A stretch of DNA of 64,000 nucleotides, taken from positions 14,403-78,402 of the forward strand of contig JAWUVP010000016.1 in assembly GCA_034112285.1 (NCBI GenBank). The letters are read 5' to 3'. The notes beneath the pieces are model-generated. The model had not been told where the DNA came from. It did no database searches and worked only from the letters and a program-made list of their open reading frames with translations. This stretch comes from Gammaproteobacteria bacterium (GTDB taxonomy: Bacteria; Pseudomonadota; Gammaproteobacteria; JABDGN01). Positions 23,682 through 54,323 of this stretch are shown piece by piece (positions within the stretch are counted from its first letter, which is position 1; each line of letters begins with the position of its first letter). A program made the position numbers and the translations under genes.

Positions 23682-23852
23682 CGCCCCTCTGGAAACTAAA
23701 TATTCCATCACGGCGAGCGACGTGATGAGCTCCTGCAGGTAATCGGGCGCTTAATAAGACTACGGCTGGCAGGAGAAGGTTAACCTATGGGCGCATAGGT
23801 GATACCCAAGCATGACGAATTCCTTTTCCTGCAAGACTTAACGCTCAATTCT

Positions 23853-24270
23853 TACGGTATAGTGAAACTCAAACCGGCCCTTGTCGCCACATAGACCTTG
23901 GTGCCATCACTGCTGACGGCTACGCCATAAACAACATTACGCCCCAAGCCCTCTGTCGTGGTTTTGTTGCTAAAGCTGGCGCCGAAATCGGTGCTGATGC
24001 TCAAGCCGCCTTCTGTCGCCGCGTATATTTTAGTACCGTCACTGCTGCGGCAGATTTTTTCTTTTTTATAGGCTTGGGAGCTGTGTCTAAGCCGTTCGTT
24101 TCGCCTAGGCTTTCTCTGATTAGTTTTTTTTCGACAATGCGATAAAGCCCTTGATAATCATCCCAATATTGCTTCATCATGGCATCAATATTCTTGAGCG
24201 CGGGGTCGAGAAACAGGGAGGACTTAGGCGGTGGCATGGAGTTAGTTTCTGGCAGTTGGGGCTGTATCAT
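23853..24270 (-). pseudogene. possible frameshifted remnant of a beta-propeller (YVTN-like repeat) protein
   Basis: Minus-strand ORF (24270..24001) continues in another frame into two tandem blades, SSDGTKIYAATEGGLSIS and SSDGTKVYVATRAGLSF. The frame change coincides with A6/A6/A8 homopolymer tracts at 24056-24095. Confidence 0.3.
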
Positions 24271-24481
24271 TGTCGTTCCTCGGGCTATAATAGGTTAAAT
24301 AATTCTGAAATTCGATTATTTTAGCGTGACGATAATGTTTTCTCAATGGCTGGGAGGCTAGGGATTGCCTGGGGTTTTAGCACGGTGCTTCAGGGCTGTC
24401 TTTTATTCATTGTATATGCTGTTTGCAATACTTTACATTATTGCTTATATTATAGTTAACATGGCAGTATTGTAAGGCAGT

Positions 24482-25894
24482 ATGACTCAAAACACGGTAA
24501 CTATAGCATCGTTCAAACGCACTCAACATGAATTGCGATTTTCCTTTGCTTGGTGTGAGCAACAATTTCCCATGCGTTATTGTTATGATACGTCGATTGA
24601 TTTTTTTCAATTGGAGAAACGCTATGGTGTAGAAACGATGCATAATATCTATTTTCACATTATCGCGTTTGAGGTGAATAAATTTGCCAGCATAAAACCA
24701 AATGTTATTGATTTTGGTGAGTTTTCACGTTTTCAAACTAAAGCCTTTGAAAATTTATGGCGCACTATTATTGTGAATGCGTGGGCGCAGTGGCGATATG
24801 AAAATAATATCATCCAATATGTGGGGCCTGAGTTTAGTGTGCCATCCGCTGCCGCCTCCACCACAAAGCCTATTAGATTACAAGACAGTGAAACAGAAAT
24901 ATTACTGTTTACTAGTAGTGGTAAAGATAGCTTGGCCTGTTTGTCTTTATTAACAGATGCAGGTGTTGTATTTGATACATTGACTTATGCCTGTAATGTT
25001 TATGGTGATATGGACCAGCAACACCGAAGCGGGGAAGCTATAGCAGTTAATGCCAATGTTGGGCAGCAACGTAAGCAGTGGATTGAAGACAGCTTCTTAA
25101 ACTCAAATATTCTAGACCACCCAAACGTTGAGACCTGTACGTTAATCGCTGCCGAGACCCCAAGTTCGATTTTTGCCAGTTTACCGTATGTGTTAATGCA
25201 CGATTATCATTATATTGCTCTCGGTCATGAACGCAGCGCCAATAGTGGCCAATTGAGATGGGATAAAACTGGCGAAGAAATCAATCATCAATGGGGCAAG
25301 TCATTCGCTGCTGAAACACTATTGAATGATTACATTCGAACGCATTTAATTAGCAACTTTAGTGTGTTTAGTTTATTACAACCTATTCATGACGTGCTGA
25401 TTTTCACGTTGATGAATAACAATCTTGCTGTAATTGAGCACAGTAATTCTTGTAACATTGATATTCAGGGTTGTGGCAGCTGTCCGAAATGTATTTATGT
25501 GGATTTAGGATTTAAAGCTTATTTACCCAAAGATGCGCCATTTCGCGAGTTCAAAACTGATCCATTTGATATTGAGCAGAATCAATTTCTTTACCGACAA
25601 TTATTGGGCTTGGAACAACATTTACCATTTGAGTGTATTGGTCAACAGGATGAAACTAATTTAGCATTTGCTTTATGTGTTGCTAAAGGCTACCAAGGCA
25701 AGGCGCTTAAACAATACCAAGCAGCACATTTAGCACCACCCGATATCGAACAATTACAAAATCGATATCTTAACGTACATACTGAACATAATATTCCACA
25801 GTTCGTTGCTGAAAATGTGATCCCATTAATGATGATAGCGGCGGAACAGGCTAAGCAAGAAATTAGCCTACAACTTGGCTGGACGCTTACTTAA
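24482..25894 (+). CDS. QueC-like / PP-loop (adenine nucleotide alpha-hydrolase) family protein with ~140-aa N-terminal extension
   Basis: Divergent PP-loop LLFTSSGKDSLACLSLL at residue ~145. C-terminal Cys cluster C..CGSCPKC, reminiscent of the QueC zinc site. The rest is unrecognised. Confidence 0.45.
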   Translation: MTQNTVTIASFKRTQHELRFSFAWCEQQFPMRYCYDTSIDFFQLEKRYGVETMHNIYFHIIAFEVNKFASIKPNVIDFGEFSRFQTKAFENLWRTIIVNAWAQWRYENNIIQYVGPEFSVPSAAASTTKPIRLQDSETEILLFTSSGKDSLACLSLLTDAGVVFDTLTYACNVYGDMDQQHRSGEAIAVNANVGQQRKQWIEDSFLNSNILDHPNVETCTLIAAETPSSIFASLPYVLMHDYHYIALGHERSANSGQLRWDKTGEEINHQWGKSFAAETLLNDYIRTHLISNFSVFSLLQPIHDVLIFTLMNNNLAVIEHSNSCNIDIQGCGSCPKCIYVDLGFKAYLPKDAPFREFKTDPFDIEQNQFLYRQLLGLEQHLPFECIGQQDETNLAFALCVAKGYQGKALKQYQAAHLAPPDIEQLQNRYLNVHTEHNIPQFVAENVIPLMMIAAEQAKQEISLQLGWTLT

Positions 25895-48763: not shown

Positions 48764-49283
48764 ATCTAGTTACTTCTCCCAAACTGGTTAGGCCTTACTT
48801 AAAATACAAAAACCCCCAACCATATCAACATGATAGAGTAGGGATTTAAAACTTATGTCGCCCAATTGGCGACTTTCTCTCATTTAGGGTCCCGGGCTTT
48901 TCGGCCCTACCTGCGGCCCTAATGAGGCTATTCAGGGACACGCAATATACACCACTTAACCTGTATTGCCAAGGGAAAATGTATAATTATTTTCTACGCC
49001 GGCATTGCCAAGACATTCCATGTCTAATTGAGTCGATGCTGCTCCTTAATATAAAATGTGTCTAACCGGAGCTTTAGGGAGGCAAAGCCACGGCCTAAAA
49101 CACCCATAGTTGTATTTCGTCTGTTTTTTACCTCAAACCACCTCTAAAACGCTCAATATTAATACAGTCCGTTAATATTTACTTAAGGTTGCTCCGATAC
49201 AATCAGCCAAGCCCAGGGAATACCCCTTCATTAACAGGTAAAAGCCATTTTGGCGGAAGAACCTAATTACAGTGAGTAGAACA

Positions 49284-52200
49284 ATGAAAATATTGCGCAA
49301 AGCCATTTTAACCAGCATCGGTATCTTACCTTTTTTCGCTCCCCTATCTGCCTTTGCTGCAGATGACGCAACCGATACGAAAGATTTATTGAGCAGTAGC
49401 GAGCTTGACTGGCGCAAGTCGCGCTTTAGTCTGGTTGCTGAATCTGGCTCACGCACCCTTGGTACGGTGGATGCCTTCGTGCCTTTCATGGGCAACGAAG
49501 ATTTCATGATTTATGCGGATTTAATGGCAAAACTGGGCTCAGGTGCCAGCAATGCTAGCGGCAACACCTTTGAAGGCAACCTCGGCTTAGGCTTTCGACG
49601 TGTGAACGATAAAGAAACAGCTATCTATGGTATGTACGCCTTTTACGATAGTCTACGTTCCGTTAACGACAACACCTTTCAACAGGTCACTGTCGGTGCT
49701 GAACGCTTAGGCTTAACCTGGGATTTTCGGGCCAATGTCTACTTGCCCTTGGGTGAAAAATCCCTGACCAAAGATGTCTATAAAGGTGGCAAAGTGGTGA
49801 TTGATGCACACAACTTAATTGAGTACATCAAATTAAACACTGAAACCATTACCACTGGTTACGATGTTGAAGTCGGCCGCACCCTGGGCACCAATAAATT
49901 GCGCGGCTACATCGGCGCTTATTCCTTTGGCAAAGATTTATCGGGCCCACGTATGCGCTTGGAATATCAACTGTCCTCTCACCTAACCTTAACGGGTAGT
50001 TTGCAACACGACAAAGATCGCGGCACCCAATATTTGTTAGGCGCGCGCATGAGTGTCGGCGGCAGTCAGGCAGAAAATTCTAACAGCATTTACAATCGCA
50101 TGACCGCCCCTGTGGTACGTGATGTTGATATTGTGACGAAAGTCACCGAAACAGATATGACTAAGGTCGAGCTAGATCGCTTCTACATGGTAGATGTCGA
50201 CAACCAAGCCAACGGCGATGGCACCTTAGAAAACCCGTTTAACTCTATCAATGACGCCATTAATGCTGCGCCGGAAAACGCCATTATTTTTGTCGTGGGA
50301 AAAAATGGCGAGCCGCAACAATTAGGCGGCGATACAAGCTTAAAAGAAGGCCAACTGTTGTGGGGTGGCTATGAACCACTCTATTGGGATTTCGACCAAG
50401 GCTTACCGCGCTTTGTTCCCAATGACGGCGACACCTTATTAATTCAATCAGGCAGTGGCGTGCGCCAGACCTTGAGTGGGGGAATTACCGCCAATGGTAA
50501 CAACATTGGCCTTTACCACTTTGATTTACAGGGCAACGGGCAGAGCGCCGATGGCGTTTTTATTAATGATCACAACGGGGTGGTTGTTAATGACGTCAAC
50601 ATTAGTGGTTTTGATACCGGCATTCAAATTTTAGGAAGCCATACGGATGTTAGCCTGAGCAATATTAAACTCGACCAAAATGGCACCGGTATACTGATTG
50701 AAGGGGGTCAAACGACCTATAGCAACCTCAGCATTAGCAATAGCGAGAACTATGGCATTCAAATGAGTGGTGGTTCTTCGCTGAGCGGCGACCATGTCGA
50801 AATCAGCAACAGTGGCCTAGATGGCATGCACATTGATAATGCAACCTTTAGTAGCAACAGCTTAACGATTAACAACAGCGAAGACAACGGCGTTTATCAA
50901 CAAGGTGGTAGCTTTAATGTGTTCGGAGCCGGTGCCGTTAGCAACAGTGGCAAAGATGGTATGCACTTTGAAAATGTAAGCTTTAGCGCCGGTAGTTTAA
51001 TGATTAGTGATAGCGATGGTTATGGCCTTTTCCAAACCGGGGGCAGCTTTGAGGTGCTGGGCAAAACCTCTGTCAGCGACAGCAAACAAGATGGCATCTA
51101 CTTTGAAAATCTTGATGCACGTATTGGTAGCATGAGTATCAGCAATAGTGGTGGCAAGGGTCTTTATCAAAACGGCGGTAGTTTAGTGGCCAGTGGTGAC
51201 TTGATAGCCAATAACAGCCAAGCTGATGGCATTTATTTACAAAATGTCACCGCGCTGGTGAAAAATATTAGCAGCACTGAAGCTGGCATGAATGGTTTAG
51301 TGCTTAACAACAGTGAGTTAAATGTTACGGGCTCGCTCGTCGCAGACAATAATGAAGCTTCAGGCATTGTTAATCAAGCGAGTAAATTGCGCATTGATGG
51401 GAAAAGTAGCAGCAGTGAGAATGGTGAATTCGGCTACTATGGCGAACACGGCAGCCTAACCGGTAGTGGTAGCTTGGAGACCTCTGCTAACAATTCAAGC
51501 GGATTTTTTGCCAGCGACAGCACAATTGAGCTGGGTGGTCTTACCAGCAACGCGAATGGCCAAGACGGCGTGATTTTACAAGACACTCAAGCAACATTTG
51601 GCTCTCTCACCGCACAAGACAACACAGCCGGAAAGGGTTTAACCATAAGTGGCAACGACAAACAAGTCAGCATTGGCATGGCCGACATTCAACGCAATAC
51701 CGTCGGCATAGTGCAGCATGATGCTGCGCTAACCATTGATAGCGGTAATGTTAGCAACAATACCCAAGAAGGGATTGATAGTTATGGCGCATCATTAACC
51801 ATTAACGATACTAACTTTGCAAACAATGGAACTGACGGCATTAAACTTAACAACGGCAGTCAGTTAACACTCGACGGCGGTAACTTTACTGATAATGGCC
51901 ACCACGGTTTAAACATGACCGACAACAATATCGCCAATATTAGCAATGTAAGCTTTACGCACAATGGTGGCATAACCGAAGATAAAGATGGCAATTCTAT
52001 TGTGCCCGATGCACAAAGCATCGATGATCTTTATAGCGCCATTTCTGTTTCGGGCACCCTAAATGCTAACGGCCTTATTGTGAACAACAATGCGGCTGGT
52101 ATTGAGTTAGTTAACGGTAGCTTAAACATCAACCAAGCTGTTGACAACAATACCAGTACCATTAACGACAATCATGGCTATGGTATTTGGGCGCATCAAA

Positions 52201-53249
52201 AGCAAGACGGCACAACACGAAACATCACTATTTCTAATACGCAGATCACCGGCAATACATTCGTCAATCCTGATGTGAAATTATTGGGTCATGGCATTTA
52301 TGCGCAAGATATCAATGAAATGCATTTAACCGATGTCAGTATGAATAACAATGAAGGCATTGGCTTATCGGTCGAAAGTGGCCGTGTAGCGCTAGATTCT
52401 GTTCAGCTTAACCAAAATAACACCGCGGGTTTATTGGTTGATGGCGGGGATGTCAGCCTTACAGACTCTGAAAGTATTGGCAATGGTAACGGGATAGAAT
52501 TTACGAACGGCAAATTAACCATTACCAACAGCTTCATTACAGACAATAAACATTTAGGTGTTTTATTAAAAAGTAACGCTGATGGTACTACGCGTGAATT
52601 AACCATGCGCGACTCTATTATCGAAGGCACAAAAAATAACAACTCTTCCATCAATTTAGGTCAAGGTGAAGGCCATGGCCTTGAGGTTGATGATAGCAAC
52701 TCAACAGTGACATTATTCAACACCCAAATTATTAATAATGAAGGCCATGGTGTTTATTTGAAAGCCGGTACGTTTACCATGGATGGCGATGATAAAAATT
52801 CATCACGCCTGGGTGAAAATGGTTTAGGTGGAATCTATGCTCTATTTGATAGCACGGCTCCAGAAAAATCTGTGCAACAAATCCACATTAACAACACAAC
52901 CATAGATTTAAATGTAAAGCGCACCGATGTGGAAGGTACCACCGCGGTGAAAATAAATTATCTTGATAAAGTCATGGACAAGACGGTCTTCATGGATAAT
53001 GTCGACATTATTCACAACAACGCTGCCGGCATTCAGTTCGTGTGGACTGATAACAATGCAAACATATATGAGGATAGCACGCCTACCATCACGCGATTAA
53101 CCATGAACAATAATGATGATTCAAATGGAAAATCGAAGCTTATAGACCCGATGATCGATCATGCAACCCTGAACCTTGGCCAAGAAGCAGAGGAATATAT
53201 CATTCGAGGCCAGGGCCGCGAGTTCTTTTGGGAAAAACGTGAACCCTAG
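49284..53249 (+). CDS. large secreted/outer-membrane protein: signal peptide + N-terminal amphipathic-strand beta-barrel-like domain (~aa 40-265) + >1000-aa parallel beta-helix repeat passenger (putative inverse-autotransporter-like adhesin)
   Basis: Signal peptide MKILRKAILTSIGILPFFAPLSAFA. N-terminal strands alternate hydrophobic and polar residues (LGLTWDFRANVYLPLG, LRGYIGAYSFG, RMRLEYQLSSHLTLTG). The rest is 22/44-aa periodic N/S/G/D-rich coils. No C-terminal barrel. Confidence 0.6.
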   Translation: MKILRKAILTSIGILPFFAPLSAFAADDATDTKDLLSSSELDWRKSRFSLVAESGSRTLGTVDAFVPFMGNEDFMIYADLMAKLGSGASNASGNTFEGNLGLGFRRVNDKETAIYGMYAFYDSLRSVNDNTFQQVTVGAERLGLTWDFRANVYLPLGEKSLTKDVYKGGKVVIDAHNLIEYIKLNTETITTGYDVEVGRTLGTNKLRGYIGAYSFGKDLSGPRMRLEYQLSSHLTLTGSLQHDKDRGTQYLLGARMSVGGSQAENSNSIYNRMTAPVVRDVDIVTKVTETDMTKVELDRFYMVDVDNQANGDGTLENPFNSINDAINAAPENAIIFVVGKNGEPQQLGGDTSLKEGQLLWGGYEPLYWDFDQGLPRFVPNDGDTLLIQSGSGVRQTLSGGITANGNNIGLYHFDLQGNGQSADGVFINDHNGVVVNDVNISGFDTGIQILGSHTDVSLSNIKLDQNGTGILIEGGQTTYSNLSISNSENYGIQMSGGSSLSGDHVEISNSGLDGMHIDNATFSSNSLTINNSEDNGVYQQGGSFNVFGAGAVSNSGKDGMHFENVSFSAGSLMISDSDGYGLFQTGGSFEVLGKTSVSDSKQDGIYFENLDARIGSMSISNSGGKGLYQNGGSLVASGDLIANNSQADGIYLQNVTALVKNISSTEAGMNGLVLNNSELNVTGSLVADNNEASGIVNQASKLRIDGKSSSSENGEFGYYGEHGSLTGSGSLETSANNSSGFFASDSTIELGGLTSNANGQDGVILQDTQATFGSLTAQDNTAGKGLTISGNDKQVSIGMADIQRNTVGIVQHDAALTIDSGNVSNNTQEGIDSYGASLTINDTNFANNGTDGIKLNNGSQLTLDGGNFTDNGHHGLNMTDNNIANISNVSFTHNGGITEDKDGNSIVPDAQSIDDLYSAISVSGTLNANGLIVNNNAAGIELVNGSLNINQAVDNNTSTINDNHGYGIWAHQKQDGTTRNITISNTQITGNTFVNPDVKLLGHGIYAQDINEMHLTDVSMNNNEGIGLSVESGRVALDSVQLNQNNTAGLLVDGGDVSLTDSESIGNGNGIEFTNGKLTITNSFITDNKHLGVLLKSNADGTTRELTMRDSIIEGTKNNNSSINLGQGEGHGLEVDDSNSTVTLFNTQIINNEGHGVYLKAGTFTMDGDDKNSSRLGENGLGGIYALFDSTAPEKSVQQIHINNTTIDLNVKRTDVEGTTAVKINYLDKVMDKTVFMDNVDIIHNNAAGIQFVWTDNNANIYEDSTPTITRLTMNNNDDSNGKSKLIDPMIDHATLNLGQEAEEYIIRGQGREFFWEKREP
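50740..51420 (+). repeat. tandem ~132-bp (44-45 aa) coding repeats inside the beta-helix protein
   Basis: Four or more consecutive units of the form S.N[SN]...G[IL]...GGS...G...[IV]S.S..DG[IM][HY][FI][ED]N. Confidence 0.6.
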
Positions 53250-53354
53250 GTTCTGACAAAGCTGAACCTAGGCTTTATGAAATAAATTAAAATTAACAAT
53301 GAGCAGAAGAAATTTAATGAATTGCCAAAACCAAATAAAAATAGGAAACCACCC

Positions 53355-54110
53355 ATGAAAAAATTTAAAATAATTTCACCCCTTTTAATCCTTCTTTCCC
53401 TAGTCGGATTTTCAGCTTACGCGGCCAATGCCGTTGTTGGAACCTGCGATATTGGCAGTGGGACGAATAGCGGATTTTGGTTTTTTCAAAATTTACCTGA
53501 TAACCATAATTTAAATATTAAATACGAAGCTTTAGACGTAGCTGGTGGCGTATATAACAATAGCCAGCTGCCTCCTGGCCTACATTGCTTGCCCTTACCC
53601 AAGCCTGATGCAACATTAAGAATGTGCTTAACATATGATGGAGAGGGGTGTTCAGACTTAAGCACATCTGAGCAATCAAGTTCGGTACAATCAGCGAGTT
53701 GTTTTGAAGATGCATGGGATAATCAAGCAAGACCAGGATGCTACTGGGCACCCAATAGACCGAGGCCAAGCCCTCAAGGTACTCCCGGCATCATAAAAGC
53801 TTCCTGCGGAACTGATCAAATGGGATTTTGGTTTAACCAACATAATTTTGATGAACATCGGAAGAATATGAACCTTTATTATTTAGTGGCTACAGGCTCG
53901 TATTATAATAATAGCCAGCTTCCCGCAGGCTTACATTGTCTTCCTCTACCGGCCCAAGGAGCGAGTATAAGAGTTTGTCAGTCACAACCAGGAGGGCCAA
54001 GAATTAACCCGCTTTGCTTTACTAGCACTGTTGATCTCGATAACGCAAAAGCCGTGACATGCAACAGTAAGTATAGGACTTGTGGTTGGTCTTCAGAAAA
54101 GCCGACATAA
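53355..54110 (+). CDS. secreted cysteine-rich protein, internally duplicated (paralog 1)
   Basis: AGGAAA SD, then ATG, then signal peptide MKKFKIISPLLILLSLVGFSAYA. Two half-repeats, each with GFWF.Q...YNNSQLP.GLHCLP.P...IR.C. About 14 Cys. Confidence 0.65.
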   Translation: MKKFKIISPLLILLSLVGFSAYAANAVVGTCDIGSGTNSGFWFFQNLPDNHNLNIKYEALDVAGGVYNNSQLPPGLHCLPLPKPDATLRMCLTYDGEGCSDLSTSEQSSSVQSASCFEDAWDNQARPGCYWAPNRPRPSPQGTPGIIKASCGTDQMGFWFNQHNFDEHRKNMNLYYLVATGSYYNNSQLPAGLHCLPLPAQGASIRVCQSQPGGPRINPLCFTSTVDLDNAKAVTCNSKYRTCGWSSEKPT

Positions 54111-54323
54111 AAATGGGGCGTCAAGACGGAGCAATCAACAAGCAAGCCTTGCCGAAAAATAAGTAGAGCTTAAAAATAATAAATAATCGAAATTTGATTT
54201 GGCGAAAACTGCGCTATTCCATACTTTTGGGGTCATTTTCGCTAAAGTATATCAACGATTTGTAGACACATGGGCGGCATAATATTGCCCCTTTGCAATA
54301 AAATTAACAATAGGACAACACAC

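Follow-up and report, generated by a model that had tools for sequence, protein, structure and literature searches.

A 64-kb stretch of a gammaproteobacterial contig (JAWUVP010000016.1; the whole 64,000 nucleotides analysed are called the window below) carries, at 24482-25894 on the plus strand, an intact member of the MurL protein family with a QueC-fold PP-loop ATP pyrophosphatase core. The protein family itself is already known and present in Pfam, and the clade that contains the window gene is not the peptidoglycan enzyme MurL. In the literature that we searched there appears to be no report of such a large MurL-like clade that has no partner ligase MurD2 and is linked to ergothioneine genes. 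We put at roughly one half the probability that the members of this clade are ATP-dependent, carboxylate-adenylating enzymes, distinct from MurL, whose substrate is ergothioneine, hercynine (trimethylhistidine) or a close betaine. For the window's own copy, which is solitary and divergent, this choice of substrate is at its least certain.

The link to ergothioneine emerged when neighbouring open reading frames (ORFs) were clustered around the MurL-like match in 80 genome loci. Recurrent neighbours included EgtB (541 bits to TIGR03440, whose cut-off is 360, and under the cut-off for SenA), EgtD (381 bits to TIGR03438, whose cut-off is 291), an ABC ATPase with a choline/betaine-type protein that fuses an OpuAC substrate-binding part to a permease, and a radical SAM protein of ~510 amino acids (aa). 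At a Candidatus Kentrum locus, whose homolog is 45% identical to the window protein, the MurL-like gene is adjoined by EgtD and by a 1137-aa Fe4S4-molybdopterin-NifS fusion (MES); MES was also found at two Thiotrichaceae loci. EgtD, EgtB or MES lay within 10 kb of the MurL-like gene at 22 of the 80 loci, in 12 cases within 400 bp, and the OpuAC-type transporter was present at 16; 30 loci had either the egt genes or the transporter. Where both flanks reached 5 kb or more (49 loci), egt genes were present at 17. Egt-linked relatives include those at L047 (Candidatus Marithrix) and L052 (Saprospiraceae). Fewer than one such locus would be expected by chance, even with one egtD per genome. The linked arrangements, many of them operon-like, vary in order and orientation and span Gamma-, Alpha- and 'Delta'-proteobacteria, Acidobacteriota, Bacteroidota and Chloroflexota, and the egt link recurred at 7 of 13 loci in an independent metagenome scan.

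EgtD with EgtB, EgtD with MES, and OpuAC-type (EgtU-like) importers are thus recurrent neighbours of the clade in many phyla, whereas none of them occurs in the window. Because two unrelated sulfur-insertion routes and a quaternary-ammonium importer type share this one neighbour, the object of the enzyme would be ergothioneine or hercynine itself rather than a pathway intermediate. The linked transporter, of putative specificity, has its substrate-binding domain before the permease, apparently the reverse of Streptococcus pneumoniae EgtU, in which the transmembrane domain comes first. The literature searched, which did not cover most subscription journals, describes neither a MurL-like gene in ergothioneine clusters nor an ergothioneine pathway with a MurL-like or PP-loop enzyme.

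Two further kinds of neighbour were observed at these loci. The radical SAM protein (L005:11486-13006, L036:11452-13179 and equivalents in L017, L018, L028, L049, L079, L093 and L095) matches no NCBIfam family and is encoded on the same strand as the MurL-like gene, 35-200 bp away and in most cases downstream; L028 has it upstream, and L093 has it upstream at a greater distance. The loci belong to Thiotrichaceae, Thiodictyon (sulfur bacteria) and Caldilineaceae; the radical SAM gene often co-occurs with EgtD and EgtB or MES, and several of the loci have a P-type ATPase upstream. It is possible that this protein is a second component of ergothioneine-linked clusters. In the relative P0008, a 774-aa fusion of TPR and peroxiredoxin/redoxin domains (L085:5661-7985) immediately precedes the MurL-like gene and a betaine-type ABC transporter, and a 1-Cys peroxiredoxin lies 3 kb upstream at the Kentrum locus. 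The peroxiredoxin neighbours hint at a redox-stress context.

We compared the clade with true MurL, using as reference the annotated murL of Xanthomonas sacchari (NZ_CP010410.1, locus L089). This gene shares 20 bp with murD (MurD2), which follows it, as has been described for XOO_1319/1320 (PMC8788868). Characterised MurLs include those of Xanthomonas, Micromonospora and Salinispora. MurD2 is the L-Glu-adding ligase, encoded beside MurL in the characterised systems, and MurL epimerises the terminal Glu; in the published chemistry one ATP is converted to AMP in a unidirectional L-to-D epimerisation, for which adenylation of the alpha-carboxylate has been proposed. The window protein is similar in length (470 aa against 451 aa for MurL), has both of its Pfam domains and is 24% identical to the X. 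sacchari protein (E=6e-21). The clade has 51 invariant residues, and true MurL carries the same residue at 29 of these positions; they include G-G-K-D-S of the PP-loop, E250, S252, N-H-Q-W-x-K, E278, the four cysteines of a Cys cluster and P-F-E-C-x-G-x-x-x-E. Because this catalytic-looking core is conserved, ATP-to-AMP carboxylate-activating chemistry is probably common to MurL and the clade. The other 22 invariants are clade-specific, and aromatic residues account for 10 of them as against 1 of the 29 shared ones (p=4e-4), a composition in keeping with a possible cation-pi cage around a trimethylammonium group. The clade also differs from MurL in its N-terminal region, in a segment inserted around aa 165-220 and in its genomic company, as it lacks a MurD2 partner and its relatives are linked to ergothioneine rather than cell-wall genes. 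A tblastn search with genuine MurD2 gave no match in the window and, across 105 loci (1.66 Mb), a single distant Mur ligase, 28.6% identical, 7 kb away and on the opposite strand.

NZ_CP010410.1 is a 508-kb sequence labelled 'plasmid unnamed' and typed non-mobilizable; it carries chromosomal genes that look essential (murL-murD2, an aspartate kinase/DAP decarboxylase gene and ssb), and instead of a plasmid it may be a chromid or part of a chromosome. Pseudonocardia alni plasmid pPaSha1 (L090:5569-6969) and two further Pseudonocardia plasmids carry a third branch of the MurL family, which is very divergent. Its members are 25-27% identical to the window protein, are annotated as hypothetical and adjoin a gene for a 1300-aa WD40 protein, with neither MurD2 nor egt genes nearby.

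The family assignment of the window protein draws on several searches. The exact protein is present in a large protein collection with precomputed matches to PF26299 (MurL_N) and PF26298 (MurL_epimerase_C), two families more recent than the Pfam release used in our direct profile search; it is listed there on an 89.8-kb NCBI contig and on a 51.9-kb JGI contig, Ga0455687_076439. An initial sequence-only reading of the window had described the N-terminal part and the remainder of the protein as unfamiliar; they are these two domains. In the direct search, Pfam QueC (PF06508) reached 15.2 bits, under its gathering score of 22, and matched only aa 310-347 (profile positions 169-209 of 210); the protein is not QueC. 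The NCBIfam MurL model NF041275 aligned to aa 237-446 alone with 96.9 bits (E 9e-28) against an equivalog cut-off of 700; this model is specific to Xanthomonadales, and a score below its cut-off does not by itself exclude orthology. A PADLOC-DB profile search returned 0 matches, and a PDB sequence search gave spurious matches alone. Many phyla contain full-length homologs (39-52% identity, with 85-100% of the length aligned), and a few of these (41-45% identical) have been labelled MurL by UniRef or JGI automatic naming. Carriers in culture include Nannocystis radixulma, Paraliomyxa miuraensis, Nocardioides sp. Root682 and Streptomyces gamaensis. At E<=1e-3, an exhaustive HMMER pass over 1.84 billion representatives recovered 1,625 clusters (50% identity), of which 978 passed E<=1e-10 and 106 passed E<=1e-30; the MurL-like family is small.

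An AlphaFold2 model built on a 62-sequence alignment is very confident, with a mean predicted local distance difference test score (pLDDT) of 94.6 and a predicted template-modelling score (pTM) of 0.93. Its best Foldseek matches are QueC (PDB 3bl5), Cap9 and QatC, followed by TtuA, LarE, ThiI, TilS and NAD synthetase; no MurL structure is among the PDB matches. The Rossmann-like fold superposes on known PP-loop enzymes and places the protein in the PP-loop ATP pyrophosphatase superfamily (adenine nucleotide alpha hydrolase fold). Compared with QueC, the window protein is twice as large, has extra N- and C-terminal domains and shares 15-19% identity. The QueC-fold assignment provides a structural frame for the ATP-to-AMP epimerisation chemistry of MurL. 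The gene and its parts, all on the plus strand, are as follows (domain boundaries are approximate).

24423..24451: promoter-like site TTGCAA-17-TATATT, 31 nucleotides 5' of the ATG, by consensus match only
24482..25894: MurL-like gene, 470 aa, monocistronic (ORF list; Pfam MurL_N and MurL_epimerase_C; AlphaFold2 model)
24482..24892: N-terminal domain, aa 1-137, a three-stranded sheet with helices (secondary structure of the model), Pfam MurL_N
24893..25531: QueC-like PP-loop ATPase core, aa 138-350
24908..24931: PP-loop motif F-T-S-S-G-K-D-S, aa 143-150, where the family consensus is F-C-G-G-G-K-D-S
25226..25237: H249-E250-R251-S252 motif, with E250 and S252 conserved in true MurL too
25283..25303: N-H-Q-W-G-K-S motif, aa 268-274, invariant in the clade, with N-H-Q-W-x-K common to true MurL
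25451..25492: four-Cys cluster C324-x6-C331-x2-C334-x2-C337, a putative zinc site of the QueC type (invariant columns; weak Pfam QueC match)
25532..25891: C-terminal helical domain, aa 351-470 (model; invariant columns)
25625-25642: invariant P382-F-E384-C385-I-G387 motif, with C385 as candidate catalytic thiol

The ORF is genuine, with an ATG start, 470 codons and a stop, and the protein is probably functional. The sequence-only reading had proposed a QueC-like PP-loop ATPase with a QueC/ExsB-like C-terminal Cys cluster, and both proposals hold: the core at ~aa 138-350 has QueC, Cap9 and QatC as its closest structures, and C324, C331, C334 and C337 (within S-C-N-I-D-I-Q-G-C-G-S-C-P-K-C, residues 323-337) are invariant in the clade and fall in the segment that matches the C-terminus of the QueC profile. 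These four cysteines probably bind zinc. That reading had named two findings that would speak against it, a lack of similarity to PP-loop enzymes and an identity as bona fide queC, and we found neither; the family towards which it inclined is nevertheless the wrong one. It had also seen a degenerate SGGxDS motif. A variant is indeed present after the strand at residues 140-144 of the model (S145-S146-G147-K148-D149-S150), in line with PP-loop membership, but it is the first Gly, not the second as had been stated, that is replaced by Ser. The G-K-D-S part is invariant in the family, and relatives carry SGGKDS or GGGKDS. Clade-specific invariants in the N-terminal domain comprise the aromatic residues F58, W93, W101 and W104 together with R105.

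By analogy with MurL and with QueC-family enzymes, whose chemistry is carboxylate adenylation, the PP-loop would bind ATP, and a small-molecule substrate would be adenylated on its alpha-carboxylate with release of pyrophosphate. The acidic C-alpha might then be inverted, with C385 as candidate base or thioester nucleophile, or the acyl group might be transferred, and AMP would leave at the end of either step. As the window copy stands alone in a sub-lineage that has diverged, its substrate would be made elsewhere in the genome or be imported. We also entertain, at less than even odds, a more specific proposal: that the clade (~100 clusters at 50% identity) is an undescribed QueC-fold adenylating enzyme of ergothioneine metabolism, which activates the carboxylate of ergothioneine or hercynine for epimerisation or formation of a derivative, was recruited independently beside betaine-type importers and both the EgtB and the MES route, and is mislabelled in public databases as a peptidoglycan epimerase.

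By sequence the window protein falls within the ergothioneine-linked MurL-like clade, a grouping defined in this analysis and not a curated family: it has at least 39% full-length identity to clade members and all 22 clade-specific invariants. In a neighbour-joining tree, midpoint-rooted and built without a true MurL outgroup, it pairs with the relative P0004 (46% identity). S-S-G-K-D-S occurs in these two proteins only, S-G-G-K-D-S in P0002 and P0003, and G-G-G-K-D-S in the other 81. The pair has in common the derived states G145S, G146S, S172N, W330G and Y344F, and in both proteins the K328-P329-W330 segment near the Cys site, at least 90% conserved elsewhere, is replaced. Both nevertheless retain 51 of 51 invariant residues, including all ten clade-specific aromatics. 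With all invariants kept and departures common to its sister P0004, we rejected pseudogene decay of the window gene; the divergence looks like a lineage-specific shift. The sub-lineage is rare, with about four members, and a metagenome scan aimed at it returned P0004's own contig and no new members. A 560-aa protein starts 3 nucleotides downstream of P0004; neither it nor a 500-aa protein that also flanks P0004 has a Pfam or NCBIfam family or a homolog in the window. P0003 is preceded on the same strand by argH (Lyase_1), which scores above the argH equivalog cut-off; a 'synthetase + lyase' amination pair was considered at this locus and dropped, as the lyase is an ordinary argH. The contig of P0002 is too short for its neighbourhood to be read.

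Several observations weigh against a role in ergothioneine metabolism, for the clade and above all for the window copy. Some 60% of family loci have no egt gene within 10 kb, and gene linkage is an association and not a reaction. The 64-kb window has no egtD, egtB, MES or betaine-type ABC transporter, and neither egt genes nor such a transporter adjoin P0004 or P0003, the sub-clade relatives whose neighbourhoods can be read. Over 118 columns with a conservation of 90% or more, the window protein departs from the consensus 15 times and P0004 25 times, the largest values of all members (median 2), and the departures hit PP-loop glycines and the conserved aromatics W34, Y295 and W330, so that the substrate may have changed. 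The window and P0004 sub-lineage might accordingly have left the ergothioneine-linked role and been neofunctionalised to act on an unrelated carboxylate, or be under relaxed selection and drifting towards loss of function. We consider this less likely than not. It would account for two proteins that stand furthest from the family consensus with derived changes in common, in a rare sub-clade without egt context, one of them beside a gene remnant. Yet the ORF is intact with every family-invariant residue in place, the shared derived states point to selection in the lineage rather than random decay, and Ser at the first PP-loop Gly leaves G-K-D-S intact in a confidently predicted fold. PP-loop variants like that of the window protein are also found in other functional PP-loop enzymes, such as CysD.

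The automatic names given to relatives by UniRef and JGI imply instead a true MurL working with a distant MurD2. The shared pair of Pfam domains, the significant NCBIfam match, the catalytic core conserved with MurL and the MurL labels on some homologs 41-45% identical to the window protein all fit that idea, but we regard it as improbable: the NCBIfam score is far from the equivalog cut-off and covers the C-terminal half only, identity to genuine MurL is 24%, the N-terminal region differs and the 22 clade-specific invariants are missing from MurL. Moreover, true murL overlaps murD2, whereas ~100 loci of the clade show no adjoining MurD2 and a recurrent linkage to egt rather than cell-wall genes, and the clade occurs in a patchy manner, as an accessory gene would (in a single Streptomyces species and here and there in metagenome-assembled genomes, for instance). 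Much less probable still is the direction in which the sequence-only reading had leaned, a member of the QueC family that serves in DNA modification with 7-deazaguanine or in anti-phage defence, similar to QatC (of QatABCD) or Cap9 (of type IV CBASS). QueC, Cap9 and QatC are the best structural matches, the GC content of the gene is low, and an XRE/DUF2975 pair adjoins it. PADLOC nevertheless found no match, Pfam QueC stayed under threshold, sequence membership is clearly that of the MurL family, and full-length superposition on QatC (PDB 9y01; the Cap9 structure is PDB 9nto) is weak, with a template-modelling score of ~0.4. The partner genes that such systems would bring, including the TGT-like and TatD genes suggested at the outset, were looked for, and no QatA/B/D, CD-NTase, Cap10, TGT/DpdA or TatD gene was found in the window or in any relative's neighbourhood; the same neighbourhoods hold no queD, queE, queF or tgt. 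An enzyme acting on ergothioneine or a related betaine is the reading that we prefer for the clade.

The immediate surroundings of the window gene agree with the earlier description of it as solitary. It is monocistronic, with an AAGG element ~6 nucleotides before the ATG, and the XRE/DUF2975 pair is convergent with it. Upstream and divergently oriented lie two short abutting ORFs of 50 and 89 aa (23852-24270, minus strand), which had been described as a frameshifted remnant; neither matches NCBIfam, and the JGI gene caller retains only the 89-aa ORF. The MurL-like gene has a GC content of 0.389 against a window mean of 0.448 (standard deviation 0.031), ~1.9 standard deviations away, which suggests horizontal acquisition but is not decisive; two other window genes without a family match are low in GC too. 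The 64-kb window contains no egt gene, betaine transporter, que gene, Mur ligase or murI. The rest of it holds pst, a Bat/MoxR operon, ribosomal-protein, str and rpoBC operons, and accessory genes. By its EF-G the source is an uncultured gammaproteobacterium, with 82% identity or less to named taxa.

Other features of the window deserve mention. Two adjacent ORFs on the minus strand (14340-15494 and 15634-16935; 384 and 433 aa) resemble the MurL-like gene in their GC content of ~0.39 and match neither Pfam nor NCBIfam; they are flanked by an SDR gene and a PEBP/two-component/pst region. A gene for a 1325-aa right-handed beta-helix protein (Beta_helix/NosD-like; 49272-53249, plus strand) is followed by two ORFs without assignment (53322-54110 and 54270-55070), and the three together separate the rpsL-rpsG-fusA operon from rpoBC, an unusual break in a conserved housekeeping region. 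A eukaryotic-type (alpha-class) carbonic anhydrase is encoded at 793-1518 on the plus strand (Pfam Carb_anhydrase, E=3e-46). An Rfam scan of the 64-kb window at gathering thresholds returned zero RNA families, with no tRNA and no ribosomal-protein leaders despite several ribosomal-protein operons.

Taken by itself, the window yields a modest result: a solitary, divergent but intact copy outside the informative context. The wider significance lies with the clade, whose link to ergothioneine, a compound with a role in bacteria that is still little understood, implies a so far undescribed step that depends on ATP, as well as likely systematic mis-annotation. The combination of a QueC-fold core, a Cys4 site and the invariant extra cysteine C385 offers a concrete structural frame for ATP-to-AMP epimerisation. 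If the proposed role is true, the window's copy would process ergothioneine-type betaines that are imported or made elsewhere.
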